Made by a program: the position numbers and the translations under genes. A model generated the notes under the pieces. That model ran no database searches. It was not told where the DNA came from and saw only the letters and a program-made list of their open reading frames with translations. Of a stretch of DNA of 64,000 bases, positions 9,270 to 59,621 are shown in pieces. The stretch comes from an uncultured Clostridia bacterium. GTDB taxonomy: Bacteria; Bacillota; Clostridia; Christensenellales; UBA1242. Positions within the stretch are counted from its first letter, which is position 1; every line of letters starts with the position of its first letter. Location of the stretch: contig CALVML010000005.1 in assembly GCA_944345705.1 (NCBI GenBank), forward strand, positions 11,282 to 75,281, given 5' to 3'.

Positions 9270-9950
9270 ATGAAAGTAAGTAAGAAATATAAACAAGCAT
9301 CCGAGCAAGTTAGACAAAAATCTTTCGATATTGCTGGAGCAGTAGATACACTCCTTGCATTGCCAAAAGCAAAATTTGATGAAACAGTTGAACTTCATGT
9401 TAGACTTGGCGTTGATGGGAAAAATGCTGACCAACAAGTAAGAGGTGTATGTATTCTTCCACACGGAACAGGTAAGGACTTAAGAGTTTTGGTTATCGCT
9501 AAAGGTGATAAGGCAGACGACGCAGTTAAAGCGGGCGCTGATTATGTCGGCGGTGAAGAAATAGTAGCAAAAATCCAAGGCGGATGGCTTGATTTCGATG
9601 TATGTATCACAACACCTGATATGATGGGTATCGTTGGACGCGTTGCTAGAGTACTTGGACCTAAAGGTCTTATGCCAAACCCAAAGAGCGGAACTGTTAC
9701 TATGGATGTAGTTAAGGCAATCAAAGATGCTAAGGCTGGTAAAGTTGAATACAGACTTGACAAGACAAACAATGTCCATGTAATACTTGGAAAAGTAAGT
9801 TTTGGTAAAGAAAAACTCATCGACAACTATAACACAGTGATCGAAGCACTTCTAAAAGCAAAACCAGCAGCTGCAAAAGGACAATATTTCAAAAATATTA
9901 CTATTGCTTCAACTATGGGCCCTGGAATTAAAGTCAACGCAGTTATTTAA
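9270..9950 (+). CDS. rplA: 50S ribosomal protein L1
   Basis: 226 aa, directly after rpl[23 protein letters not shown]...LPHGTGK and [14 protein letters not shown] motifs. Confidence 0.95.
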
Positions 9951-11652: not shown

Positions 11653-12012
11653 GAGCGGAATAATTCATTAACAACTTTAGATCTGCCGAATCTATAAAAG
11701 GGTTTGGGATTAAATATCTATTTATAAACAAATATTTAAATAAGATATATCTATCTTCTTTACAAAAACAGAAAGTGGTTTTTTGTCTAATACTAGTTTA
11801 TCTTTCAAACTTTTGCCACAGATTAAAAGATGTGCTTTAGTTAAATTAGGGAATATGAATGAAGCAGTTAGATAAAAAATGATATTGATTTTTACGATGG
11901 AAGAATAAGATAATTGGATAAATAAAATTAAATTTTCACAATAAAGGTTTATATTACACAAAAAGAAAAAGTATTTTGTATTAATCAAAAACGTAAATAA
12001 AACGAATAAATA

Positions 12013-23435: not shown

Positions 23436-23526
23436 GGAGATGTACCGAAGTGGTCGTAACGGGACGCACTCGAAATGCGTTTATCGGGCAACTGATACGT
23501 GGGTTCGAATCCCACCGTCTCCGCCA
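23436..23526 (+). tRNA. tRNA-Ser (anticodon CGA), CCA encoded
   Basis: GGAGATGTACCGAAGTGGTCGTAACGGGACGCACTCGAAATGCGTTTATCGGGCAACTGATACGTGGGTTCGAATCCCACCGTCTCCGCCA. Acceptor GGAGATG/CGTCTCC, anticodon loop CT-CGA-AA, long variable arm, T-arm GTGGG-TTCGAAT-CCCAC. Confidence 0.9.
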
Positions 23527-23527
23527 A
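23508..23527 (+). repeat. attL core (3' end of tRNA-Ser)
   Basis: AATCCCACCGTCTCCGCCAA, identical to 59602-59621. Confidence 0.85.
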
Positions 23528-23625: not shown

Positions 23626-24783
23626 TTATACAACACTATTCAGTAGGTTGATAGCATCTTCTTTAGCTTGTGGATAAAGATGTCCATAAGTTTCAATTAC
23701 CTGTTCTTCACGATCGCCAATAAGTTCGGCTATGACCTTTGTATTTATGCCTAAATGTATCAGCAAGCTTACATAAGAATGCCTAAATCCATGAGGAGTT
23801 ATGGAGGATACATTGGCGTTATTAATATCCTTGCGCAATTGCCTTCTAATTGTATTTTCAGAAAGAGGAATATCTCCGCCGAATAAGAATTTATTTGAAA
23901 TATTATTTTTTTGTTTCCATTTTTTATACTCTATAATTTTGCTAGCCAATATATCTGGAATTTTTTTATGTACGATTTTATAATTTTTTGTAGCTTTAAT
24001 TTCAGGAGCACTAGATTTTTTCCCTTCTAAAGATTTATTTATAGTTATTTGATTGTCTACTATATCATTATCTGCAAGAGCTCTAATTTCGTTAAACCTT
24101 GCTCCTGTATACATAAATGTTGCCCACATTGTATTCCATAAAATATCATCAACTGAACTTATAAATTTATTAAAAGTATCAATATCCCAAAAATTTATTT
24201 CTTTTTTTAGTTCTTTATTTTTTGGTATTTTTATAGTTTTGAACCTATTAGGTATATCATATATATTTTCGCAGTATTCAAGAAAAGTTTGAAAAGTTAT
24301 TCTTATTTTTGATAGGTATTCCCAAGCGTAAGTTTTGTTTGTCTTTTTATTTTTTAAATTCCATATATAGTTTTGCCATTCAACTAAATCAGCTTTAGTA
24401 ATTGATTCTATGCTTCGTTTTGAAAAATATGGTGTTATAAATCTTAAAAAAATATGTTCTTTATCATACACTGTACTAGATGCATTATTTGTTTTACAAT
24501 CTTTTAGATATAAACTAAGAACGTCATCAAAAATTATGTGCTTTGTAGGTTTTACTATTTTATGGTTAGCAGTATAATCAACGAAAGCTTGTTGAGCTTC
24601 TTTTTTTGTCTTAAAACCAGAAAGTCTTTTTTGCTTTTCTCCGTCATACTCCATAATTCTAAATCTAACTGACCATAATCTTCGCTCAATTTTGCCACCA
24701 CAAATTTTGCATCTATCATCTTTTGTGGCAGACACATTTCTTTTGCAATTAGGGCAGTATTTAGCCTGTTCAAAACTTGCCAT
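23626..24783 (-). CDS. int: tyrosine integrase with N-terminal zinc ribbon and arm-binding-like domain
   Basis: C-terminal catalytic region ARFNEIRAL...TPHGFRHSYVSLLIHLGINTKVIAELIGDREEQVIETYGHLY (R, HxxR, Y). N-terminus CPNCKRNV...CKICGGK, then WSVRFRIMEYDGEKQKRLSGFKTKKEAQ. Adjacent to attL. Confidence 0.92.
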   Translation of the reverse strand: MASFEQAKYCPNCKRNVSATKDDRCKICGGKIERRLWSVRFRIMEYDGEKQKRLSGFKTKKEAQQAFVDYTANHKIVKPTKHIIFDDVLSLYLKDCKTNNASSTVYDKEHIFLRFITPYFSKRSIESITKADLVEWQNYIWNLKNKKTNKTYAWEYLSKIRITFQTFLEYCENIYDIPNRFKTIKIPKNKELKKEINFWDIDTFNKFISSVDDILWNTMWATFMYTGARFNEIRALADNDIVDNQITINKSLEGKKSSAPEIKATKNYKIVHKKIPDILASKIIEYKKWKQKNNISNKFLFGGDIPLSENTIRRQLRKDINNANVSSITPHGFRHSYVSLLIHLGINTKVIAELIGDREEQVIETYGHLYPQAKEDAINLLNSVV

Positions 24784-39478: not shown

Positions 39479-40837
39479 ATGATAATAGTTGATAAAGATA
39501 CAATAGCTACTCCAAGTTTAATCACAAAATGGATAGCCAAGCACATAGAACTTTATAAAAAGTTTACAAAAAATCATGATTATTACAATGGTAAGCATGA
39601 AATTTTAGATTTAGAGAAAGAAGATAAACCTAACAATAAGACTGTTATAAATCTTGCTAAATACATAACAGTCATGGCTACTAATTATCTCGTTGGTAAA
39701 CAAGTCGATTATAGCTATAATGGTGAGCAGGGGAAAGAAACATTTGACAAGATAATGGACTTATACAAGAGACAGTCAATGCCTATGCATGACAAATTGA
39801 TGGCAAAAACAATGTCTATATCTGGTCTTAGTTATGAATTAGCTTATATGTCAAGTGATGAAAAACCCGTGCCTAAGGTGGCGGATATAAGCGAGTATGA
39901 TGCAGAGATTATATGCGACAACACTGTAGAACATAATTGTTTATATGGGGTCCATTTTTATAAGGCAGATGACGATAAAACTATAATAGAACTCTATGAT
40001 AGTACATACAAAACAACTTATCAAGCAGGAGCAAACTTTGTCAACCCTAAACAAGTTGGTAAGCCTGAAGCACATGGATTTGACAGAGTGCCGATAACCG
40101 AGCTTAAAAATAACGACGAGATTCAAGGCGATTTTGAACAAAATATAAAGGCTATTGACTCATATGAAAAGATATTCGCTGAACAAATAAATGATATTGA
40201 AGATTTTAATGACGCAATACTCATGTTATATAATACCAATTTTTATCAAGGTGATCAGAAAGAGTTTGAAGATAGACGAAAACAACTAAAGAAAGATAAA
40301 ATTCTAGAATTTACTTCAAAGGAGCAATCTGCAGCATGGCTTACTAAAATAATGGATCAGAGTAAAATAAGTGTTCTCGCTTCTGCGTTAAGGGCAGATA
40401 TACATGCTACAAGTTTTGTACCTAATATGACTGATGTAAACTTTGCAAACAACTCAAGTGGTGTTGCTATGCAATATAAATTAATAGGATTTGAGGCTCT
40501 TACAAGCGAGAAACAGACATTCTTTGAAAAATGCTTAAGGCGAAGGTTAAAACTTTTTGCAAGTGCGTTAAAATTGTTAGGTGGGCAGGAAATTAATGTT
40601 CAAGACATAACCATTACGTTTAATCGTTCTCTTCCACGCAACGATGTCGAGATGGCAAGTATTGTATCGCAGGTAGATAATCGAAATATTATTGACAAAG
40701 AAACTTTAGGCAAACAATTTTCTTTCTATAACGAAGATGTAAAGAAAAACTTAGAGAAGGAAAAAGAAGAAAATCCACAAATCGATTATGCTAGCGTTAA
40801 TAATCCAGGTCTTTATTCTTTCGGTGGTAGCTTTTAA
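39479..40837 (+). CDS. portal protein (SPP1 gp6-like)
   Basis: 452 aa, lying directly between terL and the MuF-like gene. The call rests on order and size; only general resemblance was judged by eye. Confidence 0.7.
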   Translation: MIIVDKDTIATPSLITKWIAKHIELYKKFTKNHDYYNGKHEILDLEKEDKPNNKTVINLAKYITVMATNYLVGKQVDYSYNGEQGKETFDKIMDLYKRQSMPMHDKLMAKTMSISGLSYELAYMSSDEKPVPKVADISEYDAEIICDNTVEHNCLYGVHFYKADDDKTIIELYDSTYKTTYQAGANFVNPKQVGKPEAHGFDRVPITELKNNDEIQGDFEQNIKAIDSYEKIFAEQINDIEDFNDAILMLYNTNFYQGDQKEFEDRRKQLKKDKILEFTSKEQSAAWLTKIMDQSKISVLASALRADIHATSFVPNMTDVNFANNSSGVAMQYKLIGFEALTSEKQTFFEKCLRRRLKLFASALKLLGGQEINVQDITITFNRSLPRNDVEMASIVSQVDNRNIIDKETLGKQFSFYNEDVKKNLEKEKEENPQIDYASVNNPGLYSFGGSF

Positions 40838-42459
40838 TGGCAAATCGACTTGCAGATATTTTTGCAGATCTTGAAAGTCAGCTTATATCAAATCAAAGGG
40901 CTTTATTTCAAAGTTATCCAAACTCGTCGCTCTCAGCTGTTGAAAACTTCCAAATGAATATGCTGGCAAATCAAAGCATGCTAGAACAGGTAAATGTACA
41001 AGCTGTCAACAATGCTTATCGTCAAGCTACTATTTATATGAATGACACGATAACTAAAGGCTATAATAGAGGTGTATCAAGTGTTGCGAGTCAGCTTGAC
41101 ACTGACATTAACAATAATGAAAATGAGCGTGCTGTGGCTTTAAAAAACAATGCAGACAGTGTAATTGCACGCATGTGCCGTATAGCGTTATCTTCTGCTA
41201 TGGGTGCATTTTCTGGTATTGTCAGTGCCGTTTCTGTATACAATCAAGCACAAGACTTATATCAAGCTGTAGACCAAGCACAATCGCAATATCTTGAAAA
41301 GGGTATTGTAGGGAGTGTTAACACAAATGGCGCTCAAACAAATATTGAAACCTTTGCAGACATTGTTGAAGGGGAATTTGACCATAATGCAACACTTACG
41401 GGTGAAGGACATGCTAGAGATGAGACTGGTAATTTTTATGTTGTAGTTACCGCTCATGTCGGCTGTTGTGAAAAATGTGCGAAATGGGAAAACCTGGTTC
41501 TAATTGACGATTGGAAAGCAAATGGTCAACCTGATGGAGTGCATCCGTTATTAAGTGAAGCGGTGAGTCAGGGCTTGTTGCACCCAAATTGCAGGCATAG
41601 GTTTAGAGTACCCTTTAAAGGTGAGGAGAAAAAACTTAAAGGCGATTATCACGAAACATGGACAGCCGAACAAAACAGGAGACAATATCAAGCGGAGCAG
41701 AAACAACGGCGTTATGAAAGGGAAATACGCAAATATAAAAGGCTAGAACAGGGTAGTTTAACTCAGAGCGAACAGTTAAAAGCACACCAAAAAGTACTTG
41801 AATATCAAAAAAAGCAACGAGAGCATATAAGAGCAAGCAATCAATTAGATGGTGTTAAACTTTTCAGACAATATGAAAGAGAGCGTATAGGTGGCGAAAC
41901 AAAACCGCAAGTATCACCAGAGATGCCTATATCTCTAAAAAGTAGTAATGGCTCATCACAATCTGGTGAGAGCGCCATTATAAGCCATGATCGTTATAAA
42001 TTGGATAATCTTGATAACGATTTAAGCGCGACGGAAGATTATATTTCTTCGCTTGACAAAGAACATAGTTTTATATTTACCGAAGATGGCGACGTCTATG
42101 GAGTTGAGGGTAATGAGAATTCTGTTGATCCGCAAATAGTTGGAGAAGACAAGCTTATAGGCTCAGTCATAACACACAATCACCCATATGATGAACTTGC
42201 TCCAAGCAAAGAGGATCTTGAATTTATGATAACTCATAGTATCAAGGAATTAAGAACGGTTGACAAGAATTATACTTATATATTAAAATTTAATGGTAAA
42301 TTATCTTCTCAAGAGATATTAAATTTATATCAAGAAACTTTTTTTGAAGTTGGAGATGATATGGTATACAATGGACTTAAAGGCGATGCCGCTCATTTTA
42401 TACTTGAAAGATTAAAGGACAAGGTGGAAGGATTATATTATGTCAGAATTAAGAGATAG
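40837..42459 (+). CDS. MuF/SPP1 gp7-like minor head protein fused to a C-terminal RadC/JAB-like domain
   Basis: MuF core ...CCEKCAKWENLVLIDDW...LLHPNCRHRF, then a basic coiled-coil linker, then a C-terminal about 145 aa containing GSVITHNHPYDELAPSKEDLEFM (HNHP-x5-PS-x-ED spacing as in RadC HNHPSGxxxPSxxD). Confidence 0.75.
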   Translation: MANRLADIFADLESQLISNQRALFQSYPNSSLSAVENFQMNMLANQSMLEQVNVQAVNNAYRQATIYMNDTITKGYNRGVSSVASQLDTDINNNENERAVALKNNADSVIARMCRIALSSAMGAFSGIVSAVSVYNQAQDLYQAVDQAQSQYLEKGIVGSVNTNGAQTNIETFADIVEGEFDHNATLTGEGHARDETGNFYVVVTAHVGCCEKCAKWENLVLIDDWKANGQPDGVHPLLSEAVSQGLLHPNCRHRFRVPFKGEEKKLKGDYHETWTAEQNRRQYQAEQKQRRYEREIRKYKRLEQGSLTQSEQLKAHQKVLEYQKKQREHIRASNQLDGVKLFRQYERERIGGETKPQVSPEMPISLKSSNGSSQSGESAIISHDRYKLDNLDNDLSATEDYISSLDKEHSFIFTEDGDVYGVEGNENSVDPQIVGEDKLIGSVITHNHPYDELAPSKEDLEFMITHSIKELRTVDKNYTYILKFNGKLSSQEILNLYQETFFEVGDDMVYNGLKGDAAHFILERLKDKVEGLYYVRIKR

Positions 42460-46846: not shown

Positions 46847-49445
46847 AAATACACAAGATTGGATATGCAAATTTCAGTTTTTTGATAGAAACACAGGACA
46901 GTGGTCGAGTATGTTTGCGCCACAAATTGGTTTCGGTGAAACGTTTGTTCAAGACGAAACAACTGATGATGGAAGTTTAAATTTTAAATGGCGTAGCAGT
47001 TCAAAGCCTAATATACAACACATGCAGTGGGCAAGAATATTACATTTTCATAAGGGTGACAATATGGTGGCAACATATGACGAGAATGGACTACCAATAA
47101 ATCACAATCAATATGTTATAGGTGACTTTCAGATGGCACAAAGCAAGGATAAGTCCTATTGGCTTGTCAAACTTTCTCTACTTGAGCCGATAGAAAGAAT
47201 GCGATTTGTTGTTGGCGAAACTCTTGCCTATACCAATCAAACATCCAAGACTGTCACTGATGGCTCTGGTAATACTGTCACATATGTTAAAGATCCATAT
47301 AATCATTTAACAGCCCTTGAGAGATTTTTAAAAGTCACACCTGCGAACTGTGATAATTATGGTGAAGGTTATAATCCACATAACAATAAATCATGGTATA
47401 ATAGGATAAAGATACTTGATAAAGACTTTTTGCAAAATATACCATTTGATAGCGACTCATTTACTGAGCCAGACCTGTATACAATTTTATTCAAGTATGA
47501 CAAAAGCACAGGAAGAACACCTTGTATGTATTTCGATATGGATCCAGTTACCGATTTACCGCGAAATCTTGATAGAGATGAGTATATACTTAAATTTCTA
47601 CGCCAAGACGGATTTGATAAACCTGTTCTAAACCTATCAGACATAACCGCAAACGCACAAAATGTGACTTATAAATCAAGCCTAGCAAACTTTGCTACAG
47701 GAGTTGTTAGCAATGTTGAAAATCTTGTCACGGGGAGTAATACAGCATTTCCTTTCTACAAATTATATGCTGTACCAGAAATAAATAATAATGTAAGAAA
47801 TTTATCAAATTATAACACTGTTGATAGTGGATGGGGAATTAAATTTCCATTTCCAATAAAAAGAGTTAATAAAATTATTAGAAGGACAGCACTTTTTTGG
47901 GAAAATCTTAATTCTGTAGGTAATGGTGTCATTAGTAGAAGAATTAGTGTTGATGATATTGACTTAACAAGCAACTGTTATGAGATGCAAGAATATAATA
48001 GTTTGGATGAAGAAGAATATTCAGAAGATGAACTATTTTATTATAAAGAAGGTGACAATTTTGTTTATATTAAGAATTATTATTGTGTAAATAATCCAAA
48101 GCTTGACGAAATTATCGAACCATATTTTTACTATATAGAATACGAACCATTAATTAACCCTAAATTAGAAATTGGTGATAACGAATACTCAACTATTTTT
48201 AATCAAGTAGATAGCCAGGTGGATAGCACTAAATATAATAAATTTTTGAATCGGTATTTATTATCAATGGGGAAATCTGATTTAACTATAATTAAAAAGC
48301 ATTATCATCCAGAGGAAATGTATGAAATCGGTAGTCTAGTTTACGATGAAGAAAATAACAAAAAATATATGATAACAGGTTCTTCATATCAAAATCTGAA
48401 TTTTGAACTTCTTGCCGTTTACCAGCTTAATGAGAACCATTTTAGAAGGAATAATTCCGTTAAGGCAAATAAAGCAATAAGACAAAATGCTTCTATAGAT
48501 TATTCTAATATAAAAAACAGAAAAGTTTCTATTATAAATAATATAAATTTAAATTCTAATAGTAATAATAATTCTAAATTCAGATTTATTTTTAATTCCA
48601 TCGTGAATGATGATTTAGATATTCCACAATGTGTACTTATTAATGCTTCATCGAACCTATTGAATTCAAATAATGAAAATGTAGAAATGAACAAAAAATT
48701 TGTTTTGCCTCTACTAAGTACGGCAAATGATAATGAAATTATATTCGTGTTTTGCATTCAAGATAATGCAATGATAGGCAAAGACAAATATTTTGATGAT
48801 AAAAGTTATTCTGGTGCAGGCGGTGTAAGAAGATATTATCCTATAACAAGAATTTCCAAACAGGTTGATGTATTATATACAGATCCATTTGGTTGTATTG
48901 ATATAATGGAATTAGATCTATGTTCTAATCCACAAGATATGACCGATATTGAAATAGGAAATGATAATGTAACAGAAACTACTTTTAATATGTATCTTGA
49001 CAATTATAAAAGGCTAGCTTGTGTCACTATATCCGATGATGAAGCAAATATTTTGAAAGAAAACTCTATCATAAATTTTGGATTAAATATACTAAAAGAT
49101 TCAATTGAAAAACCAATAATATCTTATATTGTTAAATTCAATAGTGAAAATATAATATTAACCAATAAATTATTATTATCTAGTCTGAAAAAAGTAGTAT
49201 TTAGTAATTTAATTGTAAAACTTTATACTTGTAATGTTTCGATATATGATGACATAGATTATATAGCTAGTTATCAAGCAGAATGTTCTTTAATTGATAA
49301 TGGTGTAAAAATATCTTTTGCAAATGGAATTCAAAATGTTAAATCTTTAGTCTTATGGAGTGATAATGATGTGTTATTATTGGCGAAAAATGTAGATGAA
49401 GACGAAATTTATAATGGTTATTACATAATTTCACTTGACTGTTAA
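46821..49445 (+). CDS. large tail/baseplate structural protein (874 aa)
   Basis: ATG after GGGGGAGAG. Beta-rich and aromatic-rich N-terminal two thirds, then a very N/I/K-rich C-terminal third. No peptidase or lysozyme motif seen. Confidence 0.5.
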   Translation: MNMSITGVKNTQDWICKFQFFDRNTGQWSSMFAPQIGFGETFVQDETTDDGSLNFKWRSSSKPNIQHMQWARILHFHKGDNMVATYDENGLPINHNQYVIGDFQMAQSKDKSYWLVKLSLLEPIERMRFVVGETLAYTNQTSKTVTDGSGNTVTYVKDPYNHLTALERFLKVTPANCDNYGEGYNPHNNKSWYNRIKILDKDFLQNIPFDSDSFTEPDLYTILFKYDKSTGRTPCMYFDMDPVTDLPRNLDRDEYILKFLRQDGFDKPVLNLSDITANAQNVTYKSSLANFATGVVSNVENLVTGSNTAFPFYKLYAVPEINNNVRNLSNYNTVDSGWGIKFPFPIKRVNKIIRRTALFWENLNSVGNGVISRRISVDDIDLTSNCYEMQEYNSLDEEEYSEDELFYYKEGDNFVYIKNYYCVNNPKLDEIIEPYFYYIEYEPLINPKLEIGDNEYSTIFNQVDSQVDSTKYNKFLNRYLLSMGKSDLTIIKKHYHPEEMYEIGSLVYDEENNKKYMITGSSYQNLNFELLAVYQLNENHFRRNNSVKANKAIRQNASIDYSNIKNRKVSIINNINLNSNSNNNSKFRFIFNSIVNDDLDIPQCVLINASSNLLNSNNENVEMNKKFVLPLLSTANDNEIIFVFCIQDNAMIGKDKYFDDKSYSGAGGVRRYYPITRISKQVDVLYTDPFGCIDIMELDLCSNPQDMTDIEIGNDNVTETTFNMYLDNYKRLACVTISDDEANILKENSIINFGLNILKDSIEKPIISYIVKFNSENIILTNKLLLSSLKKVVFSNLIVKLYTCNVSIYDDIDYIASYQAECSLIDNGVKISFANGIQNVKSLVLWSDNDVLLLAKNVDEDEIYNGYYIISLDC

Positions 49446-49477
49446 CTTTATTTATTATAAACTTAAACAGAGGTATT

Positions 49478-49780
49478 ATGAATACAAAAAAAATAATAAT
49501 GTTAAGTTTTATTTTGATTTTCTTAATTTTAATTTTAGCAGGTCTTGGTCATGCTTTTTCGTTTATTGTACAATCATATAATAGTATTTTTTATGATTTT
49601 GGTACAGGAGAAAGCGCAAATCTTTCTGATGAGAATTTAAAACTAATTTGGAGTTGGTACGATTCTTATTATATTTTATCTATCATAGCTATTATATTAT
49701 TATCATCTTTAATAATTTTAGTTTCATATCTTTTTATTAAAGAAATAGTATATTATTATAAACAGAAGAAACTTAAATAG
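49478..49780 (+). CDS. small 2-TM membrane protein, paralog A
   Basis: MNTKKIIMLSFILIFLILILAGL...YYILSIIAIILLSSLIILVSYLF. RBS AGAGG. Confidence 0.6.
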   Translation: MNTKKIIMLSFILIFLILILAGLGHAFSFIVQSYNSIFYDFGTGESANLSDENLKLIWSWYDSYYILSIIAIILLSSLIILVSYLFIKEIVYYYKQKKLK

Positions 49781-49788
49781 AGGTGATT

Positions 49789-50088
49789 ATGAATACAAAA
49801 AAAATAGTAATATTAAGTTGTGTTTTAATTTTCTTAATATTGATTTTAGCAGGGCTTGCCTATGATTTTTCATTTATTATACAATCATATAACAATATTT
49901 TTTATGATTTTGATACCGGTGAAAGTTATACCAATTATACAGATGAGGAGTTAAAACTGTTTTGGAGTTGGTACGATTCTTATTATATTTTGTCTATCAT
50001 AAGTATTATATTACTATCAGTATTAATAATTTTAGATTTATATCTTCTAATGAAAGAAATAGTGTCTTATTGCAAGCATAAGAAATAA
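49789..50088 (+). CDS. small 2-TM membrane protein, paralog B (tandem duplicate of 49478-49780)
   Basis: About three quarters identical to paralog A by hand alignment. The duplicated unit (about 311 nt) includes the upstream ACTTAAAYAGAGGT. Confidence 0.6.
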   Translation: MNTKKIVILSCVLIFLILILAGLAYDFSFIIQSYNNIFYDFDTGESYTNYTDEELKLFWSWYDSYYILSIISIILLSVLIILDLYLLMKEIVSYCKHKK

Positions 50089-50115
50089 TTGACTACTGAA
50101 ATAAAAGTGATTGTT

Positions 50116-50667
50116 ATGAAAAAGAAGTTAACTTATTTTTTTGTAATTTCTACATCTATATTATTAATTGTTTTAATAGGGTTACTTTCCTATCACTTAG
50201 ATTACTTTGTAAAATATGAAATTGGGGGAAGTGATTTTTTGCAAATGATTTTTATTTTCATATTTTTGTTAATCGCATTTATACTATATTGTGTTATACT
50301 CTATTGTTTCATAAACAAAAGAAATGTTCCAATATTAACATTTCTAAAATTTATAATTCTAGTATTTTTATTAATTAGTTTTATTTTAACTTTGATTTAT
50401 ACTATTGATAATTATCATTTTTATTTAATTGAGGAGTCTTTGAGTTGGAATGATATATTTTTAAATAGCGAGTTAACAACTATTATGTTAACTATCTTAT
50501 TTGCATCAATCTTTTTATTTATGGCTTTTGTTTTTGTTTTAATACAAATTATTCTTGATATAAAAAACAAAAATTATCCACAAATAAACTTAGTTAAACT
50601 TCGTCAATCTCGCAAAGACAAACGCCTTAAACGTTTACAAGATAAAATAGATAAGTTAGATGAGTAG
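50116..50667 (+). CDS. 4-TM membrane protein with basic coiled-coil tail (183 aa)
   Basis: Start at ATG 50116. Four long hydrophobic segments, then KLRQSRKDKRLKRLQDKIDKLDE. Confidence 0.55.
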   Translation: MKKKLTYFFVISTSILLIVLIGLLSYHLDYFVKYEIGGSDFLQMIFIFIFLLIAFILYCVILYCFINKRNVPILTFLKFIILVFLLISFILTLIYTIDNYHFYLIEESLSWNDIFLNSELTTIMLTILFASIFLFMAFVFVLIQIILDIKNKNYPQINLVKLRQSRKDKRLKRLQDKIDKLDE

Positions 50668-50697
50668 ATTTTGTAAAATCTTATTAAATATTTTAAT

Positions 50698-50726
50698 TTG
50701 ACTATTTAATATTAAAAGGTTACAAT
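50698..50726 (+). promoter_or_regulatory. promoter of the 50733 membrane-protein gene (possibly leaderless mRNA)
   Basis: TTGACT (50698-50703), 17 nt, TACAAT (50721-50726). The ATG lies 7 nt after the -10 and there is no SD at normal spacing. Confidence 0.4.
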
Positions 50727-50732
50727 ATATAT

Positions 50733-51221
50733 ATGAAAAAGAAAAAAGCTTATTATATATACTCATTTTTTATCTGTGTATTATCAATTGTAAATATAAT
50801 CATAAACATTTCTCCTTTAAAATATGCTATATATGTTTATAATGTAGTGAGAAGAGATTATGATATTGGTCTCTATATTTATGGCATTGTTATGGCTATT
50901 AGTTTAGTTATAATTATATTAAATATAATTGGGATGTGGTTATACAAGAAAGATAAAAAGGTAAAAATTAGTATTGTTATAAGTATATTTTCTATAATAT
51001 TTCTTTTATTTATATTTATTCAAGCTATATATTTTATAAATTCCACAATAAATCTTTTGAATCAATACGAAGGTTCAACGGCTTCTCATTTATATGTACA
51101 TTATTTACAACTTGCATTCTCTGCTATATGCATTATTCTTGAGATATTTAAACTTGTCATTATATCTAAATCAGCTCGCAAGCCTAAAGAGAATGCCGTC
51201 AAGCTAGATGAGGTAAAATAA
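50733..51221 (+). CDS. 4-TM membrane protein (162 aa)
   Basis: MKKKKAYYIYSFFICVLSIVNIII... with four hydrophobic segments. Confidence 0.55.
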   Translation: MKKKKAYYIYSFFICVLSIVNIIINISPLKYAIYVYNVVRRDYDIGLYIYGIVMAISLVIIILNIIGMWLYKKDKKVKISIVISIFSIIFLLFIFIQAIYFINSTINLLNQYEGSTASHLYVHYLQLAFSAICIILEIFKLVIISKSARKPKENAVKLDEVK

Positions 51222-51302
51222 CGAATAAAGGGAAAAGTAGGTATTATTTTTTAAATATTTGCATAAAAAGTGCAAAAATCGCAAAAATAACTCTGTAAAA
51301 CA

Positions 51303-51331
51303 TTGACAATTATCATGTTTTTGTATAAAAT
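51303..51331 (+). promoter_or_regulatory. promoter of the ATPase/RloB-like cassette
   Basis: TTGACA (51303-51308), 17 nt, TAAAAT (51326-51331), with a TG two bases upstream. The ORF-track TTG start is actually this -35 box. Confidence 0.55.
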
Positions 51332-51347
51332 GATAATGGAGGTTAAA

Positions 51348-52604
51348 ATGTTAATAGATTTTAAATTTAAAAACTTTATGTCTTATAGAGATGAAACTTT
51401 ATTCACAATGGAAGCAAATGTAGATAATAGTCACGTAGACAATTTGATCCAAAATGAAAATAAAAGATATTCAAAGGTTAGGGTGATGTATGGGGCGAAT
51501 GCTTCTGGTAAATCATCATTTATAAAGGCTTTAGATTTTGTTAATCAGTTTGTATTTATTTCTAATGTTGTGCTTAATACAAATCAAATAAGAATTGTTC
51601 CATATAGATTTCGGGATAATTATCTTAATTATCCTTCAGAATTTTGTATTGATTTTGTTAAAAATGGAAAAAGATACAGGTATTCTTTTTCATGTAAAAG
51701 AGATATGGTCATCAATGAACGCCTTGATGTTTTTTATTCAGCTAAACCAACTAATATTTTTGACAGGTATGATACTGAACACTTCAAAGTAAATAAAAAT
51801 TTTATCAACATAAAAACATTAGAAGATAAACTTGACCCTTATAAATTATTTTTAACAACGGTTGCAAGTAAACAAATAGATGTTGCTAAACAAGTTGTAG
51901 AATTTTTGTTGAACGATCTATTTATTCTTCGTAGTCCAGATATAAATTTTAATTTTAAATTTATATTTGATAATAATGACTTTGAAGATTTTAAAAGGTT
52001 TTGTTTAAAGATTTTAGGGAATGCTGATATAAATATTACTGATTTTGATATAGAAGTAAAAGCTTTAAAAGATTTAGATAATGCAGATAATTTTTTAAGA
52101 CTCTATAATGAACAAACAAAATCAGAACTACTTAGAAATACAAGCATTTTTAACATAAGAACATTGCACAAGATTAAAAATGGCGATAAAGATGAAGCTT
52201 ATGAGTTAAACATGAAACAGGAATCTTTAGGAACACAGCAATTATTTAATCTAGCTCCAATTTTATATTATGTTTTTAGAAATGGTAAAACTTTAATAGT
52301 AGATGAGTTAGACAAGAGTTTGCATCCTTTACTTGTTCAGTATATTATTAAGATGTTCTTAGATAAAGATATAAATACAAAAAATGCTCAGTTAATATGT
52401 AATACTTTCGATACAAATCTACTAGATCTAGATTTGTTAAGGCGAGATGAAATATGGTTTACTGAAAAGGATTTTAAAACAGGGGTTTCTGAACTTTATT
52501 CATTATCGGACTTTTCTATTAGAAAGAATGAAAATGTGAACAAAGGATATATGCTAGGTCGATATGGAGCAATCCCTTTTATAAAAGGAGTATTCGATGT
52601 ATAG
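51348..52604 (+). CDS. ABC-type (AAA_21/AAA_15-like) ATPase of a two-gene defence-like cassette
   Basis: Start at the ATG after GGAGG. MLIDFKFKNFMSYRDE, Walker A YGANASGKSS, signature-like ESLGTQQLF, Walker B/H-loop TLIVDELDKSLHP, C-terminus RRDEIWFTEKD...GRYGAIPF. Confidence 0.8.
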   Translation: MLIDFKFKNFMSYRDETLFTMEANVDNSHVDNLIQNENKRYSKVRVMYGANASGKSSFIKALDFVNQFVFISNVVLNTNQIRIVPYRFRDNYLNYPSEFCIDFVKNGKRYRYSFSCKRDMVINERLDVFYSAKPTNIFDRYDTEHFKVNKNFINIKTLEDKLDPYKLFLTTVASKQIDVAKQVVEFLLNDLFILRSPDINFNFKFIFDNNDFEDFKRFCLKILGNADINITDFDIEVKALKDLDNADNFLRLYNEQTKSELLRNTSIFNIRTLHKIKNGDKDEAYELNMKQESLGTQQLFNLAPILYYVFRNGKTLIVDELDKSLHPLLVQYIIKMFLDKDINTKNAQLICNTFDTNLLDLDLLRRDEIWFTEKDFKTGVSELYSLSDFSIRKNENVNKGYMLGRYGAIPFIKGVFDV

Positions 52605-53214
52605 GCAACGGATAAAGAAATTTAGAAATCCAATTATATATTTAATAGTGGAAGGTAAAAATAAGACAGAGCGGAATTATTTGTCATATTTCAAAAATAA
52701 AAATAACAAATTTAAATTATATATAGTTGATAGTGTAGCAACTGACCCAGAAAGTATGATAAAAAAAGCCATAGAAGTCTATCGTAAAAATGATTTAAAT
52801 GAAATGAATGGTGATAAAGTTTTTTGTTTAATTGATTTAGATTTGTCCGCAGAAAGATATAAAAAAGTAAACATGATGCTTCAGAAGAATGTATATAAAA
52901 AGGTTAATGTAATTTTTTCAAATCCATGCTTTGAAATTTGGCTTTTGTATCATTTTACCGAGTATCCTAAACCCGAGAAATGTTCTAGTGATGTAAAAAA
53001 ACAAGTAAAAAAATATATTAAAAATTATGAAGAAAATTACGACAATTATGATATCATAGGTATTTATGAGAAATATATTACAGCAATAAATAATTCTGAC
53101 AGGAGAAATCGACTTTATATAGAGAATAATATATCTAAACATGAAAGAAATCCGTATACGGAAGTGCAAAATCTTATAGACTTATTCAATAAATACAATG
53201 AGCAGGACAAGTAG
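52597..53214 (+). CDS. RloB-like (TOPRIM-related) protein
   Basis: IIYLIVEGKNKTERNY, VFCLIDLD and FSNPCFEIWLLYHF match RloB-family hallmarks (EG..TE..YF, D.D, SNPCFE.WLLLHF). Overlaps the ATPase gene by 8 nt. Confidence 0.75.
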   Translation: MYRQRIKKFRNPIIYLIVEGKNKTERNYLSYFKNKNNKFKLYIVDSVATDPESMIKKAIEVYRKNDLNEMNGDKVFCLIDLDLSAERYKKVNMMLQKNVYKKVNVIFSNPCFEIWLLYHFTEYPKPEKCSSDVKKQVKKYIKNYEENYDNYDIIGIYEKYITAINNSDRRNRLYIENNISKHERNPYTEVQNLIDLFNKYNEQDK

Positions 53215-53226
53215 TCTTGCTTTTTT
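53202..53226 (+). terminator. intrinsic terminator closing the ATPase/RloB-like cassette
   Basis: GCAGGAC (53202-53208)-AAGTA-GTCTTGC (53214-53220, one G-U), followed by TTTTTT. Confidence 0.55.
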
Positions 53227-53242: not shown

Positions 53243-55753
53243 ATGAAAAACAATAAAGTTTTATTGTCATTCGATATGAATGGCAATTTTTTATCTATTC
53301 AAGAAGATAGCAATAAAATCTACGCAGGAAGTGTGGCGAGTGTTGAGTATTATGTCGATTTTACCGAAAACTTATCTGCAAATGATTTAGTTTATATTTC
53401 ATTTACTAGACCAGACAATCAAAAGCTTGCTCCATTAATTTGTGAGCGAATACTTGATAATAGATTTAAATTGTTATCTACGGGGGAAGAACTCGATTAT
53501 AATTTGACAACAACCGAAGAAATGACTATCAATGTTATAATTAAAACTAGAGATATTATAACTAATGTTTCAGCCATTAAATCGCAAGCAAGTGTTGTTG
53601 TTAATGTTTATCCAGGAAGTCAATTTGTTCCAGGAATAGTTGATGATAGTGTTGTAACTAATCTTGAAGAACATTTGAATGATATTGAAAAATACACAAT
53701 TAAAAAATATAATGTGAAAGACATTCAAAATGGATTAGTCTTGATACCTTATGCAGAAAACGGAATAAAAGAAGCTCCTGCAATATACATGGGTTATTCG
53801 CATTTAGTTAAATTTTATAATTGGGAATATGAAGAATATCGTTCAACAAATGTTCAAGGAAATTTATTTGTATTTGCAGAAAATGTAGATTCCAATATAA
53901 TAAAGCAATATGAGTATTTATTTACAGATAATAAAATATATGCTAGAACAGTGATTCAAGAGACAGTAACCAATGTTACAACCACCATTACAACCATCGA
54001 TGCTGGTGATTTTTATGATATTTCACTTGTCAATGATACTTTTTTGGATTATACAGATGGTAAAATTACTGAGCATAACACAAGTGGCACTGCACATTAT
54101 GATATCAGATCTCTTATTTCACAACTTACAAGCCAAGTTACTGAGAATACGAGTGATATCGCAAGCAATTCAAATAGAATTGACGCTAATGCTACTAATA
54201 TAAGCAATTTGACTATACAAGTCAATAGCAATTCTAGTTTGATTCAAGATACAAGAAACAATCTAGCAAGTAATTATTATACTAAACAGCAAACTTATAC
54301 AAAAGACGAAGTCAAGAGTTTGCTTGGAACGGCGGCAGGCTTCCAGTTTGTAATTGTAGAAGAATTGTCATTGCAGGGCGATCCAACAAAAATATATCTT
54401 GTGCCCGTATCGAAATTAACACAGTTAACCGAAAATGATCCACAAACAGAAGTAGATGATTATTATGACGAATATATTTGGCTTGCTTCTGAGAATAGGT
54501 ATGAGTGTATCGGTTCAACGCGGATCAATATAGATGACTATGTTACAAACGAAGACTTTGAAACAGCGCTAAACACCAAATCTGATACTACATATGTTGA
54601 CGAACAGCTTGATTTAAAAGCTGATGCTACAGAAGTTGATGATGTTAAAAATAATGTGAGTGGATTAGAAACGTCTATTTCAAGTTTACAGACGCAGATA
54701 AATAATAATATAGCAAATATTACCGATTTAGAGAGCAATAAACTGGATAAAAATCAAGGTGTAGCAAATGCTGGCAAGGTGATGCTTATTGGCGAAGATG
54801 GCAACTTAATTCCACAATCCCTAGCGGATGGAGGTACAACTGTAATTGTGAATGGGGAAGCACAAACCACATGGGATGCAGATACTAAAGCAAATGTGTC
54901 TTCACTTTCAGCAGTTGCAACGAGTGGCTCTTATAGTGACCTAACTGATAAACCTACTATTCCAACAGATAACACAGAACTTACAAATGGCGCGAATTAT
55001 GCTACAGTTTCACAGATCCCAACTAACAATAATCAATTAACTAACGGAGCAAATTACGCTACAAAATCAGAAGTATCATCCACTTACGCTACAAAATCAG
55101 AAGTATCATCCACTTATGCGACTAAAACTGAGTTGACAACCGAGATAAGCAATAGGACTACTGCGGATAGTAATTTGCAAGGTCAAATTAATGAAAAGGC
55201 AAATAATACAAATCCTCAGTTTTATAATACAGCTAACTTTAATCCTACCACAGGTAATACAGAAAGGGGAGTTATAATTTCTCCAGGTGCCTATACACAA
55301 CCTCGAATAACATTTGTTGGAAATTTAGGAGCACAATTATATATAACAATGGGTGAAAGTGATTATGACGGAAATTATATTTCTTGCTCATCGGAATTTC
55401 GTTCTAGTAGTATATACACTAATAGTTTATCTGTCAATGGACGTGAACCACGTCTTATATTTGACCAGGGTACAACATCAAATGGTTATTGGATTAAATA
55501 TACTGACAGTACTATGGAACAACATTTTACAGTTACTGGTTCACGGGGAGATGTAACACCACATAATTTTCTTCAAGACTTTAGGGGTATTCCTATAGTT
55601 CATAGAACAATTGATATAGATGGTAGTGGTAATGCCAGTCAATTAAGAGGATGGAATATTTCAAACTTAACAAATACCGGTTTTAATATATATACTACTG
55701 ATATTTCGGGGGCAGAAACATCTATGATTTCTGCCTATGGATATTGGCAATAA
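53243..55753 (+). CDS. tail fibre / receptor-binding protein (836 aa)
   Basis: Central N/S/T-rich coiled-coil region (TENTSDIASNSNRIDANATNISNLTIQVNSNSS), repeated ..NGANYAT.SEVSSTYATKSE.. units, and a globular C-terminus. Confidence 0.7.
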   Translation: MKNNKVLLSFDMNGNFLSIQEDSNKIYAGSVASVEYYVDFTENLSANDLVYISFTRPDNQKLAPLICERILDNRFKLLSTGEELDYNLTTTEEMTINVIIKTRDIITNVSAIKSQASVVVNVYPGSQFVPGIVDDSVVTNLEEHLNDIEKYTIKKYNVKDIQNGLVLIPYAENGIKEAPAIYMGYSHLVKFYNWEYEEYRSTNVQGNLFVFAENVDSNIIKQYEYLFTDNKIYARTVIQETVTNVTTTITTIDAGDFYDISLVNDTFLDYTDGKITEHNTSGTAHYDIRSLISQLTSQVTENTSDIASNSNRIDANATNISNLTIQVNSNSSLIQDTRNNLASNYYTKQQTYTKDEVKSLLGTAAGFQFVIVEELSLQGDPTKIYLVPVSKLTQLTENDPQTEVDDYYDEYIWLASENRYECIGSTRINIDDYVTNEDFETALNTKSDTTYVDEQLDLKADATEVDDVKNNVSGLETSISSLQTQINNNIANITDLESNKLDKNQGVANAGKVMLIGEDGNLIPQSLADGGTTVIVNGEAQTTWDADTKANVSSLSAVATSGSYSDLTDKPTIPTDNTELTNGANYATVSQIPTNNNQLTNGANYATKSEVSSTYATKSEVSSTYATKTELTTEISNRTTADSNLQGQINEKANNTNPQFYNTANFNPTTGNTERGVIISPGAYTQPRITFVGNLGAQLYITMGESDYDGNYISCSSEFRSSSIYTNSLSVNGREPRLIFDQGTTSNGYWIKYTDSTMEQHFTVTGSRGDVTPHNFLQDFRGIPIVHRTIDIDGSGNASQLRGWNISNLTNTGFNIYTTDISGAETSMISAYGYWQ
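55055..55114 (+). repeat. perfect 2 x 30-bp tandem duplication inside the fibre gene
   Basis: TACGCTACAAAATCAGAAGTATCATCCACT twice (YATKSEVSST x2), followed by a degenerate third copy. Confidence 0.9.
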
Positions 55754-57689: not shown

Positions 57690-58689
57690 TATAAATAAAA
57701 AAGATTTACTGCGAGGTATATCAGGTACACTAATTATCATCTTAGTGTTAATAGCTAATGGTTTTATGTCGTTTATCACTGTGGGTTTTGCTTTCGAGAA
57801 AATTCTTACTGCATCATATTGGGCAAGTTTTTCCATATTACTTGCTTCTGAGTTATCTGTTCTTTTTGGTATGTATCTTATACAAAAGGGTCGTGATTTA
57901 AAGAAAAAGAAAATTACAGATATACAGGATGAAATAGACAAACAGCGTAGAACTATATATGACTTAGATAAGGTGGCTGAAGCTGAAAACTGGCTAAAGG
58001 ATGTTTATAATTATCAAATTAAACTCGATTTATATGAAGATAAAATTAAATCAATATACGAATCATTGCGCGTTAAAGAACCACAAAAAGAAGACAAAAA
58101 TTATAACAAGAAAAAAATAAAATATGACAAAATAATGGCACAAAAGACGCAACTTCTAGAACAACTTGATTTTATAAAAAAAGACCGAAAACGTTTAAAC
58201 TTGATTATAAATAAAAGTGATACACATGAGATTGCAGAACTTAATGAGACGCTCAATACTGACAAATATAAATTTCGAACAGCCAAAATACATTATAAGC
58301 CTATTTATTGGGGAAACTTATTGTCCGATGTAGAAGAAACTAAAACTAAACCGGTGTCTGCTTTTTTCGATGAAAAGATTGAGCTTACAAAAAGTGTCTC
58401 AAAATACATTGCGACAGGTCTTTTATCGGCTGGATTTGTTTCTTGTTTAATATTTCCGACTTTTAATTCTCTTGGATGGAATACTGTTCTTAGCCTTCTT
58501 GTCAATCTAGTAACATTGATTGTCTTTATGATTAAAGGTATTGGATTATCAAATAAAATCATACTTGGTAAATATTATAAAGCTCTTGAAAGTCGTAAGT
58601 CAATTTATACCAAAATGCTAAAAGATTTAGGTGTTTCAAAGATTGTAATTGAAGACGAGGATGTCAATGAAACTGAAAACTTGGGTTAA
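57664..58689 (+). CDS. membrane protein with 2+2 TM segments flanking a long coiled coil (341 aa)
   Basis: An N-terminal TM pair, about 170 aa of K/E-rich coiled coil, then a C-terminal TM pair. Confidence 0.55.
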   Translation: MNLKNKINSINKKDLLRGISGTLIIILVLIANGFMSFITVGFAFEKILTASYWASFSILLASELSVLFGMYLIQKGRDLKKKKITDIQDEIDKQRRTIYDLDKVAEAENWLKDVYNYQIKLDLYEDKIKSIYESLRVKEPQKEDKNYNKKKIKYDKIMAQKTQLLEQLDFIKKDRKRLNLIINKSDTHEIAELNETLNTDKYKFRTAKIHYKPIYWGNLLSDVEETKTKPVSAFFDEKIELTKSVSKYIATGLLSAGFVSCLIFPTFNSLGWNTVLSLLVNLVTLIVFMIKGIGLSNKIILGKYYKALESRKSIYTKMLKDLGVSKIVIEDEDVNETENLG

Positions 58690-59368
58690 GAGGGTTATTC
58701 TTATTTTATGCATAGTATTAATTTCAGCGTTATCATGGATAACACTTAATAATTTAGGAATAACTTCTATAGAAGGATTAAGAAAACTTATTTCATCTTG
58801 TGGGAGTTGGAGCTTGGTAGTATTTGTATTATTGCAAGTATTAGTGACAACATTATTATGCTTTGTTCCTGCTACAAGTATGACTTTCATTATAGTATCA
58901 ATTATTTTATTTGGTGCATGGAAAGGATTTTTAATCTCTTTGGCTGGTGTAATCTTATCAAGCATGGCAATGTTTTTGATAGGTAGATTTGGTGGAGAGA
59001 AAATAGCTGTCAAAATGGTAGGTGAAGAAACTCTAAAGAAAGCGCAAGACTTGATTGCTGTTAAATCAAAAATATACTTACCAATAATGTTCTTATTTCC
59101 ATTTTTCCCAGATGATGCACTTTGTATGGTGGCAGGTATAACAAAAATGCGTTGGTGGGAATTTCTACTGATAGTTGTATGTTGCCGAACCGTTGGTGTG
59201 GCTATGACTTGCTTTTTAGGAAGTAACCTAATCAATTGGTCTAATCTTACGATAATTGACTGGTTTGTGTTCATTTCGGTATGCTTAATAGACTTATATA
59301 TTATTTATAGACTTGCGGATAAATTAGAAAAGAAAATAAGAGAGAAGAAAGATAAAGGGAAAGAGTAA
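58667..59368 (+). CDS. TVP38/TMEM64 (DedA/VTT-domain) family membrane protein
   Basis: FVPATSMTFIIVSIILFGAWKGFLISLAGVILSSMAMFLIGRFGGEKI and FPFFPDDALCMVAGITKM resemble the VTT-domain core. The start is chosen 6 nt after GAGG. Confidence 0.6.
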   Translation: MKLKTWVKRVILILCIVLISALSWITLNNLGITSIEGLRKLISSCGSWSLVVFVLLQVLVTTLLCFVPATSMTFIIVSIILFGAWKGFLISLAGVILSSMAMFLIGRFGGEKIAVKMVGEETLKKAQDLIAVKSKIYLPIMFLFPFFPDDALCMVAGITKMRWWEFLLIVVCCRTVGVAMTCFLGSNLINWSNLTIIDWFVFISVCLIDLYIIYRLADKLEKKIREKKDKGKE

Positions 59369-59601: not shown

Positions 59602-59621
59602 AATCCCACCGTCTCCGCCAA
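59602..59621 (+). repeat. attR core (displaced copy of the tRNA-Ser 3' end)
   Basis: AATCCCACCGTCTCCGCCAA, identical to 23508-23527. There is no tRNA body upstream of it. Confidence 0.85.

Follow-up and report, generated by a model that had tools for sequence, protein, structure and literature searches.

A two-gene AbiL-type cassette, probably exchangeable anti-phage cargo, in a temperate phage integrated at tRNA-Ser

AbiL (the AbiLi/AbiLii pair) was reportedly described by Deng et al. in 1999 in Lactococcus lactis, where it is said to be of plasmid origin; to our knowledge neither its trigger nor its target has been described, and its structure has yet to be solved. The RloA and RloB genes are said to have been found by Miller et al. 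in 2005 in type I restriction-modification loci of Campylobacter, and the hotspots of phages P2 and P4 carry PARIS and other systems. Lactococcal AbiL has been shown experimentally to be a two-gene abortive-infection system of the ATPase plus TOPRIM type (PMC13064643), and has been placed in one group with PARIS (PMC11464382); the PARIS protein AriB superposes poorly on AbiLii (PMC13064643). Here we describe a locus that resembles AbiL in being a co-oriented gene pair (an ABC/Rad50-like ATPase first, an RloB/Toprim-like protein of about 200 amino acids second) in which both PADLOC models of that system find a strong match, and that differs from it in setting, its carrier being a prophage in a low-GC bacterium and not a lactococcal plasmid. 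We read the locus as probably an anti-phage cassette of AbiL type (RloA/RloB-like), made up of two genes, which a 36-kb temperate phage at tRNA-Ser carries as a moron, or exchangeable cargo.

The window (the whole stretch of DNA that was analysed, 64,000 nucleotides) has bacterial host DNA in its flanks, with genes for SecA, NusG and L1. A prophage of about 36.1 kb is integrated at the tRNA-Ser(CGA) gene (23436-23526) and is bounded by a 20-nt perfect direct repeat (family D12), read on the plus strand, of which the attL core (23508..23527) is the 3' end of the tRNA gene and the attR core lies at 59602..59621. Together with an integrase gene (23626-24783, minus strand) and genes for terminase, portal and capsid, these features support the reading that the prophage is intact and integrated. 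The 22-kb late-region DNA had no match in 50,697 phage records, and deposited phages do not include this phage group; the DNA of the cassette had no match in the same records either. The cassette consists of two genes on the plus strand (51348-52604 and 52597-53214), with a near-consensus promoter on its 5' side and a terminator hairpin on its 3' side, the start of gene 2 lying inside the end of gene 1 (an overlap of 8 nt by the ORF coordinates). Its GC content is 24.0%, compared with 32.7% for the remaining prophage.

Gene 1 (51348..52604, plus strand) encodes a predicted AbiLi/RloA-type ABC ATPase of 418 amino acids, related to Rad50 and SMC, which profile searches matched to Pfam AAA_21 (3.1e-29) and, over residues 1-414, to PADLOC AbiLi (8.7e-88). 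A ribosome-binding site, GGAGG (51338..51342, plus strand), stands 5 nt before the ATG at 51348, and both are kept in four related loci; a mechanical ORF listing starts the gene at a TTG at 51303, a position that we rejected as the start, as this base is the first of the promoter's -35 box. The translation contains GANASGKSS, ESLGTQQLF, LIVDELDKSLHP, RRDEIWFTEKD and GRYGAIPF, and we assigned the Walker A motif to G49-S56, the signature to S293-T296, Walker B to D319-E320, the D-loop to D322 and the H-loop to H326. Across 35 homologues G49, K55, S293, G295, T296, D319, E320, D322 and H326 are invariant, and residues 241-280 stand out in the homologue comparison as a variable insertion. The C-terminus (392-418) is conserved too, and is modelled with low confidence. 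The gene 1 protein found no match in the PDB by sequence or by profile; a Foldseek search with its AlphaFold2 model (pLDDT 82) returned Rad50 (7.6e-11), with further matches to OLD (6p74) and the retron protein PtuA. All five motifs and a Rad50/SMC-like head fold are thus found in the sequence and the model, which together point to an ABC ATPase.

Gene 2 (52597..53214, plus strand; 205 amino acids) encodes a predicted Toprim nuclease of the AbiLii/RloB type. Pfam RloB covers residues 15-195 of the 205 (3.1e-33, profile search), and AbiLii is the protein's sole match in PADLOC (2.2e-23). VEGKNKTERNY, CLIDLD and SNPCFEIWLLYHF are present in the translation; among 40 homologues G20, E25, D73, D80, D82, the stretch P110-C-F-E113 and W115 are invariant and E19 is nearly so. 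The AlphaFold2 model (pLDDT 92) has a beta-alpha topology in which E19 closes strand 1 (residues 13-19) and D80xD82 closes strand 3 (residues 74-80). A glutamate after strand 1 and a DxD after strand 3 are the Toprim signature given for RloB (PMC12065111), and the predicted protein has both, as judged from its sequence and model. Comparisons across families did not independently confirm the Toprim fold: a Foldseek search of the PDB with the gene 2 model gave no convincing Toprim match, only generic Rossmann-like ones (TM about 0.3) and topoisomerase I at E = 0.04, a search of BFVD gave another RloB-like protein only, and hhalign, run with the RloB profile against P2 Old, was not significant (probability 1.3%), with the EG and DxD motifs in register. 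The PDB, searched by sequence and by profile with this protein, gave no match.

Pfam and PADLOC results therefore place the cassette with AbiL/RloAB and not with PARIS, Gabija or OLD. By sequence, it has the components that define AbiL genetically (an AbiLi ATPase and an AbiLii protein in adjacent, co-oriented order), and the domains assigned to AbiLi and AbiLii in a 2026 review are those of the two cassette genes (PMC13064643). It resembles RloA/RloB in that gene 2 is a full-length Pfam RloB protein with an AAA_21-type partner (one plasmid homologue is annotated RloA), and differs in lying outside any hsdR/M/S locus, its neighbours being phage structural genes and genes for small membrane proteins. 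PARIS is likewise a split pair of ABC ATPase and Toprim-type nuclease that often occupies cargo hotspots of prophages and satellites, and it serves best as a template for the mechanism, with a toxic nuclease that is sequestered by an ATPase sensor; it differs in its second protein, AriB, which is of about 35 kDa (compared with the 205 amino acids of gene 2) and whose Toprim family is DUF4435. We rejected PARIS as the identity of the locus: gene 2 had no AriB or DUF4435 match in Pfam or PADLOC, and the sole AriA match of gene 1, to the model PDLC02980 (304 positions, 1.9e-29), has the length, coordinates and score of the generic Pfam AAA_21 match and lies about 190 bits below the AbiLi score. 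The top 50 structural matches of the gene 1 model do not include AriA. OLD of phage P2 and GajA of Gabija also combine an ABC ATPase with a Toprim nuclease (OLD 6p74 is among the structural matches of gene 1, and P2 old is a lysogenic-conversion gene as well), the two being fused there in a single polypeptide and encoded here by two genes; this assignment too was rejected, as no GajA, GajB or OLD model matched either gene in PADLOC or Pfam. Closeness to lactococcal AbiL is judged here from the PADLOC models.

A first-pass annotation of this DNA had described two overlapping genes, an ATPase followed by an RloB/TOPRIM-like protein. The ORF coordinates confirm the overlap, every motif that it quoted occurs in the translations, the profile searches bear out the pairing, and the putative Toprim acidic residues that it had named as something to look for are conserved; the subfamily, which it had left undecided, is now settled as AbiL/RloAB. 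Its impression that the sequence is distant from textbook members did not hold, since the AbiLi E-value indicates that the cassette is not especially distant from them.

The two genes are inherited together. In all RloB-matching loci examined an ATPase gene lies directly upstream in the same order, the identities of the paired proteins drop in parallel across loci (from 88/84% to 31/26%), and in homologues at 58-88% identity both frames are kept and still overlap by 8 nt; from these sequence comparisons the genes appear to be translationally coupled and co-inherited as a pair, with the ATPase leading. Beyond the phage relatives, a scan of a genome collection found relatives at 50% and 34% identity only, and a homologue of about 50% identity adjoins serine recombinases, AbiEii and a type III restriction-modification system. 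A tblastn search of plasmids with the ATPase gave 184 records, each below 40% identity, and no Lactococcus record is found among the 25 plasmid matches listed. These comparisons bear on the idea of a cassette that has become inactive and survives as a remnant, or of a chance pair of ORFs with a misleading profile match. Very AT-rich DNA does yield many ORFs and promoter-like sites; against this, the profile E-values range from 1e-23 to 1e-88 with full-length coverage, the predicted catalytic motifs are all intact, and identical copies of the cassette occur in several independent assemblies. With profile matches, motif conservation and paired homologues in hand, this idea is effectively refuted already, and we give it next to no credence.

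The cassette has also diverged in step with the phage. ATPase identities of 88, 76 and 58% parallel those of the structural proteins (78-87, 78-84 and 63-72%), which argues for co-divergence with the phage lineage and against a recent insertion. The same parallel, and the position of the cassette on the late-gene strand within the structural module, would fit a role in the phage's own lytic cycle (degradation of host DNA or RNA, recombination, or counter-defence), with transcription as part of the late/tail operon. We regard such a role as very improbable: related phages that lack the cassette carry unrelated cargo in its place, so that it appears to be dispensable, and both a promoter of its own and a deviant GC content set it apart. 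The RloB/AbiL family is, moreover, overwhelmingly non-viral, with 11,208 clusters overall and relatives in 3 of 50,697 sequenced phage records (tblastn of RloB against these gave three weak records only).

The promoter just mentioned is a sigma-70-type site, TTGACA-17-TAAAAT (51303..51331, plus strand), which agrees with the consensus at 11 of 12 positions and is among the three best promoter sites in 11 kb. Promoter-like sites in the AT-rich region number 87, compared with 72 +/- 8 in shuffled sequence (no excess), and a promoter-like match is therefore weak proof by itself. Conservation adds to it: across the five lineages that carry the cassette (the window, L010, L014, L011 and L009), down to 58% protein identity, the -35 box does not vary and the -10 region is conserved, and relatives with other cargo lack this promoter and have promoter-like sites of their own. 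The comparison indicates that the promoter moves together with the cassette. Upstream of it lies an element, TTTGCATAAAAAGTGCAAAAAT (51258..51279, plus strand), with the inverted repeat TTTGCA...TGCAAA, which forms the left edge of the exchanged segment and occurs once without mismatch in the window. Its core is conserved in the five cassette lineages and also in L046, which has other cargo, and the similarity between L010 and L046 stops just past it; the element might serve as an operator, as an UP element or as a recombination joint.

On the right, an intrinsic-terminator hairpin with its T-run (53200..53226, plus strand) forms the boundary of the exchanged segment. It has a 9-bp stem (53200-53222), with the T-run extending to 53226, and a predicted energy of -15.2 kcal/mol (z = -4.3); the last five codons of gene 2 (EQDK and stop) extend into it. 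In nine of nine phage lineages the hairpin stands directly 5' of the tail-fibre gene, whichever cargo is present, and in L009 a second copy is found on the other side of the cassette. In the alignment 98.8% of the cells are paired and the changes are pair-preserving single changes only; a covariation analysis found neither double compensatory changes nor an excess over shuffles, and an Rfam scan for non-coding RNA found the tRNA alone. From its distribution, we assign the terminator to the phage backbone and to the site, not to the cassette.

To the right of the hairpin is the presumed tail-fibre gene (53243..55753, plus strand; 836 amino acids), the right-hand anchor of the site, whose N-terminus is conserved in all relatives and whose homologues in L009, L021 and L045 have collagen-like repeats. 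To the left, between a gene for an 886-aa protein and the cassette, and outside the latter, are four genes for small multi-pass membrane proteins (49478..51221, plus strand; two to five hydrophobic segments each, GC 21-24%), which share its low-GC stretch. Genes one and two of this set are tandem paralogues (repeat families D1 and D2), and relatives carry differing sets of such genes. The flanking 886-aa and 836-aa proteins matched no annotated family, and PDB sequence and profile searches with them also gave nothing; we infer the position of the cassette between tail genes from synteny. The first-pass annotation had the cassette interrupt the tail module, a statement that goes beyond the matches for the two flanking proteins. 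Its promoter call was sound; its terminator is real and is misattributed, the same hairpin being present in relatives with different cargo. Its reading of the unit as a moron gains support from the travelling promoter, the low GC content, the intact prophage and the alternate cargo at the same site.

This alternate cargo identifies the site just upstream of the tail-fibre gene, by sequence comparison, as a cargo-exchange slot, which is new in the present analysis. The AbiL cassette is the occupant in the five lineages named above; four others (L021/L022, L043, L045 and L046) have different cargo, which is SocA_Panacea with a small partner (a Panacea-type toxin-antitoxin) in L045 and L046, a trio of a 289-aa protein, DUF4325 and a PIN protein in L021, and a trio of genes of no recognised kind (381, 92 and 147 amino acids) in L043. 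L010 and L046 have flanks that are 90-93% identical on each side, the sole difference being a clean swap of the cassette. Because the five cassette lineages were retrieved with the cassette as query, these counts do not give its frequency. In searches for additional related phages, scanning IMG/VR with one protein yielded none, a second IMG/VR anchor led to a contig already found, and a metagenome scan gave three contigs, all ending short of the slot. The locus shows the hallmarks of a moron as far as they can be read from sequence (its own promoter, a downstream terminator shared with the backbone, deviant composition, and presence or absence in relatives). As in the P2/P4 hotspots, an autonomous promoter, a terminator and deviant GC are combined with replacement by unrelated defence or toxin-antitoxin genes at a fixed site; the differences are that this slot abuts a tail-fibre gene, belongs to an undescribed phage group and has a 26-nt hairpin as its right edge in nine lineages. 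Tentatively, the slot might be a dedicated exchange site for lysogen-expressed cargo, with TTTGCA...TGCAAA on the left and the 26-nt hairpin on the right, both perhaps recombination joints.

The occupants of the slot also raise the question of whether the cassette is mainly a toxin-antitoxin addiction module, which would kill cells that lose the prophage and would involve no sensor-triggered defence. Relatives have toxin-antitoxin-type cargo in the same place (SocA_Panacea in L045 and L046, a PIN-domain protein in L021), and pairs of an AAA antitoxin and a TOPRIM_OLD toxin have been validated by toxicity-neutralisation assays (PMC10440598). The two roles are not exclusive, however: PARIS, a toxin-antitoxin-like pair, is a defence system too, and lactococcal AbiL is defined through its phage-resistance phenotype (PMC13064643). 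A chromosomal prophage, furthermore, hardly needs post-segregational killing, and the closest non-phage homologue of the cassette lies among defence genes. We consider addiction as the main role unlikely.

Under the preferred reading, an AbiL-type anti-phage cassette, the promoter would drive both genes in the lysogen while the late operon is silent, and the hairpin would keep transcription from running on into the tail-fibre gene. The ABC/Rad50-like ATPase may keep the RloB Toprim nuclease inactive and double as the infection sensor, the best candidate for a sensing surface being the variable insertion at residues 241-280 of gene 1. A component of a superinfecting phage would then release or activate the nuclease, whose predicted metal site (E19/D80xD82/E113) would cut nucleic acid and abort the infection, an outcome that would shield both the lysogen population and the resident prophage. 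The target could be tRNA or other RNA (as for AriB of PARIS) or DNA (as for OLD and GajA). This sensor/effector model is borrowed by analogy from PARIS, whose AriB belongs to a different Toprim family (DUF4435).

Taken as a defence system, the cassette is a clean but ordinary case of phage carriage. Prophage-borne AbiL has been reported previously, standard defence finders detect AbiL-type pairs, so that annotation of this kind is routine, and the RloB family is very large. What the locus supplies is a set of natural variants at 58-88% identity for work on the trigger, target and structure of AbiL, and comparison of the relatives delimits the cargo slot precisely, with a conserved terminator at its boundary. 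New defence or toxin-antitoxin cargo could be sought in this slot across a group of uncultured prophages. If the tentative reading of the slot is true, the trio of L043 (381, 92 and 147 amino acids) and the 289-aa/DUF4325/PIN trio of L021 would be new anti-phage systems, and L010 with AbiL and L046 with Panacea, as a near-isogenic pair, would offer a natural experiment on what AbiL senses.

The prophage within the window spans 36.1 kb and is flanked by bacterial housekeeping genes (SecA, NusG and L1), with a tRNA-Ser(CGA) gene at 23436-23526, a 20-nt att repeat at 23508-23527 and 59602-59621, an integrase gene at 23626-24783, and, between 38 and 44 kb, genes for terminase, portal, minor head and major capsid proteins. 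Within it, the segment 49446-53242, which comprises the cassette and four genes for small membrane proteins, has a GC content of 24.0%, versus 32.7% for the remainder of the prophage; the cassette and its flanks recur as identical copies in several metagenome assemblies. Elsewhere in the window, an ORF of 2888 aa occupies the bacterial flank (12054-20720, minus strand), and the last gene before attR (58649-59368) codes for a membrane protein with a VTT/DedA domain (Pfam, 3e-20); this gene keeps its place in all related prophages and is unusual as phage cargo. The minor head protein of the related phage locus L009 (1-1311; Phage_min_cap2) has an added ADP-ribosyltransferase toxin domain (PF03496); its homologue in the window (40837-42459) gives minor-head matches only.

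The first-pass annotation proposed two overlapping genes, and both ORFs are indeed present on the plus strand, at 51348-52604 (gene 1, 418 aa) and 52597-53214 (gene 2, 205 aa), with an 8-nt overlap and with all of the quoted peptide motifs in their translations. Mechanical ORF calling starts gene 1 at TTG 51303, the first base of the TTGACA box; the biological start is ATG 51348, which is preceded at 5 nt by GGAGG, both being kept in four related loci. Gene 1 matches AAA_21 (Pfam, 3.1e-29) and AbiLi (PADLOC, 8.7e-88), and gene 2 matches RloB (Pfam, 3.1e-33) and AbiLii (PADLOC, 2.2e-23), with nothing beyond AbiLii in the PADLOC scan of gene 2. PARIS, Gabija and OLD membership was ruled out: the PADLOC 'AriA' match of gene 1 is the generic AAA_21 match in length, coordinates and score, and the AriB, GajA and OLD models matched neither protein. 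These profile results place the cassette in the AbiL/RloAB subfamily, a point that the first reading had left open; its proposal of an ATPase plus RloB/TOPRIM candidate anti-phage system carried by a prophage is supported. The family comprises 11,208 clusters at 50% identity (E <= 1e-3), and sequence searches of the PDB with both proteins returned no detectable relative.

The Walker A, signature, Walker B, D-loop and H-loop residues of gene 1 are invariant among 35 homologues, and its AlphaFold2 model (pLDDT 82) resembles Rad50/SMC heads (E 8e-11), the OLD nuclease 6p74 and the retron/Septu protein PtuA. Conservation and model confidence are lowest at residues 241-280, the place occupied by the insertions of Rad50 and AriA. 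In the C-terminal tail (392-418; pLDDT below 50), R392, E395, N396, Y401, L403, G404, G407 and P410 are invariant, and RloB or another protomer may dock onto this tail. In gene 2, G20, E25, D73, D80, D82, P110-C-F-E113 and W115 are invariant among 40 homologues and E19 is nearly so; these include the TOPRIM-type acidic residues sought. The gene 2 model (pLDDT 92) shows a beta-alpha fold of four strands in which E19 ends strand 1 and D80xD82 ends strand 3, a placement matching the Toprim signature, in terms of which RloB has been characterised (PMC12065111; PMC10440598; PMC13064643), so that a Toprim nuclease is predicted. That the cassette is an inactive remnant appears less likely.

A search with the cassette proteins, which biases the sample towards presence, found the cassette at this position in four additional phage lineages, the ATPase and RloB identities to the window being 88 and 74% (L010), 88.5 and 84% (L014), 76 and 72% (L011), and 58 and 51% (L009), respectively. 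The two identities drop in parallel across loci, and the ATPase lies directly upstream of the RloB relative in every such locus, 14 IMG/VR contigs included. Because the divergence of the structural proteins tracks these values (for example, 83, 78 and 63% for a 305-aa protein), the cassette is an old passenger of this phage lineage rather than a recent insertion. A homologue about 50% identical (cluster of 775 member sequences) adjoins serine recombinases, AbiEii and a type III restriction-modification system. The proposed promoter, TTGACA-17-TAAAAT (51303-51331, plus strand), is present with 11/12 consensus positions, a match that is weak evidence by itself because the region is not richer in such sites than shuffled sequence (87 versus 72 +/- 8); it is credible because the -35 box does not vary, and the -10 region is conserved, across five lineages (to 58% protein identity). 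We consider a lytic-cycle function a less likely role for the cassette.

The right edge of the cargo slot is a hairpin, AGCAGGACAAGTAGTCTTGCTTTTTT (53200-53226, plus strand; 9-bp stem and T-run; -15.2 kcal/mol, z = -4.3), after which come the ribosome-binding site and start codon (ATG) of the presumed tail-fibre gene; that gene contains a perfect 30-nt tandem duplication (55054-55113; repeated peptide YATKSEVSST). The terminator attributed to the cassette in the first-pass annotation exists but belongs to the slot, not to the cassette, since the hairpin is kept in 9/9 lineages irrespective of cargo, with 98.8% of stem positions paired and all changes pair-preserving. Cargo genes terminate at or within it; the RloB ORF crosses the first arm, with its stop codon in the loop, and so acquires an -(E/K)QDK tail limited to this phage group. 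In L009 two hairpin copies bracket the cassette, one in the usual place (11852-11876) and an extra one just upstream, after a 253-aa gene (9806-9830), an arrangement suggestive of module stacking or exchange at the hairpin. At the left edge, the element TTTGCATAAAAAGTGCAAAAAT (51258-51279) is common to the cassette-bearing phages and L046, a related locus with other cargo; past it the promoter is cargo-specific (TTGACA-17-TAAAAT in the window, TTGACA-18-TATAAT in L046).

Because the cassette-based sample favours presence, we searched again with the 305-aa structural protein; all relatives with enough flank were without the cassette and carried other cargo between the small membrane-protein genes and the presumed tail-fibre gene. 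In L021 and L022 it consists of three genes (L021 14627-16409), for an unannotated protein of 289 aa, a DUF4325 (STAS-like) protein of 107 aa and a PIN-domain protein of 189 aa, a trio that may be an uncharacterised toxin-antitoxin or defence system; in L045 (7046-8017) and L046 (14782-15649), a SocA_Panacea (PF13274) gene with a downstream partner of 146-170 aa resembles a toxin-antitoxin pair of the Panacea type; and in L043 (15307-17173) the three genes present (products of 381, 92 and 147 aa) have no Pfam match on record. The DNA of L010 and L046 is 90-93% identical on either side of the slot, and similarity is lost exactly between L010:9950 and L010:11863, a clean cassette swap.

The small genes beside the slot (49478-51221; GC 21-24%) encode products with 2-5 hydrophobic segments each and no family match; the first two are tandem paralogues (~75% identical), and a promoter-like TTGACT-17-TAAACT lies by them at 49435-49463. 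The set differs in every related phage (1-4 genes), and its members may be superinfection-exclusion or other lysogen-expressed membrane proteins. One of them (window 50100-50572) is 92-93% identical to L043 14647-15054, whereas the neighbouring structural proteins are just 58-62% identical, pointing to recent exchange between diverged phages.

The cassette couples an ATPase with a predicted nuclease, both with their active sites intact, and travels in the prophage as exchangeable cargo that bears its own promoter. By analogy with PARIS, validated AAA/TOPRIM_OLD toxin-antitoxin pairs (PMC10440598) and the lactococcal AbiL phenotype (PMC13064643), the gene 1 ATPase would hold the nuclease inactive and sense infection, and activation would release the nuclease and abort the infection; a pure addiction module is a less likely reading than this defensive one. 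AbiL-like systems have been reported in Lactobacillus brevis prophages (PMC6805780), and 14% of AbiL systems in the Pseudomonas syringae complex are prophage-borne (PMC13182921); prophage-encoded systems of this type are therefore already known, and what is new here is the definition of a cargo slot with conserved edges.
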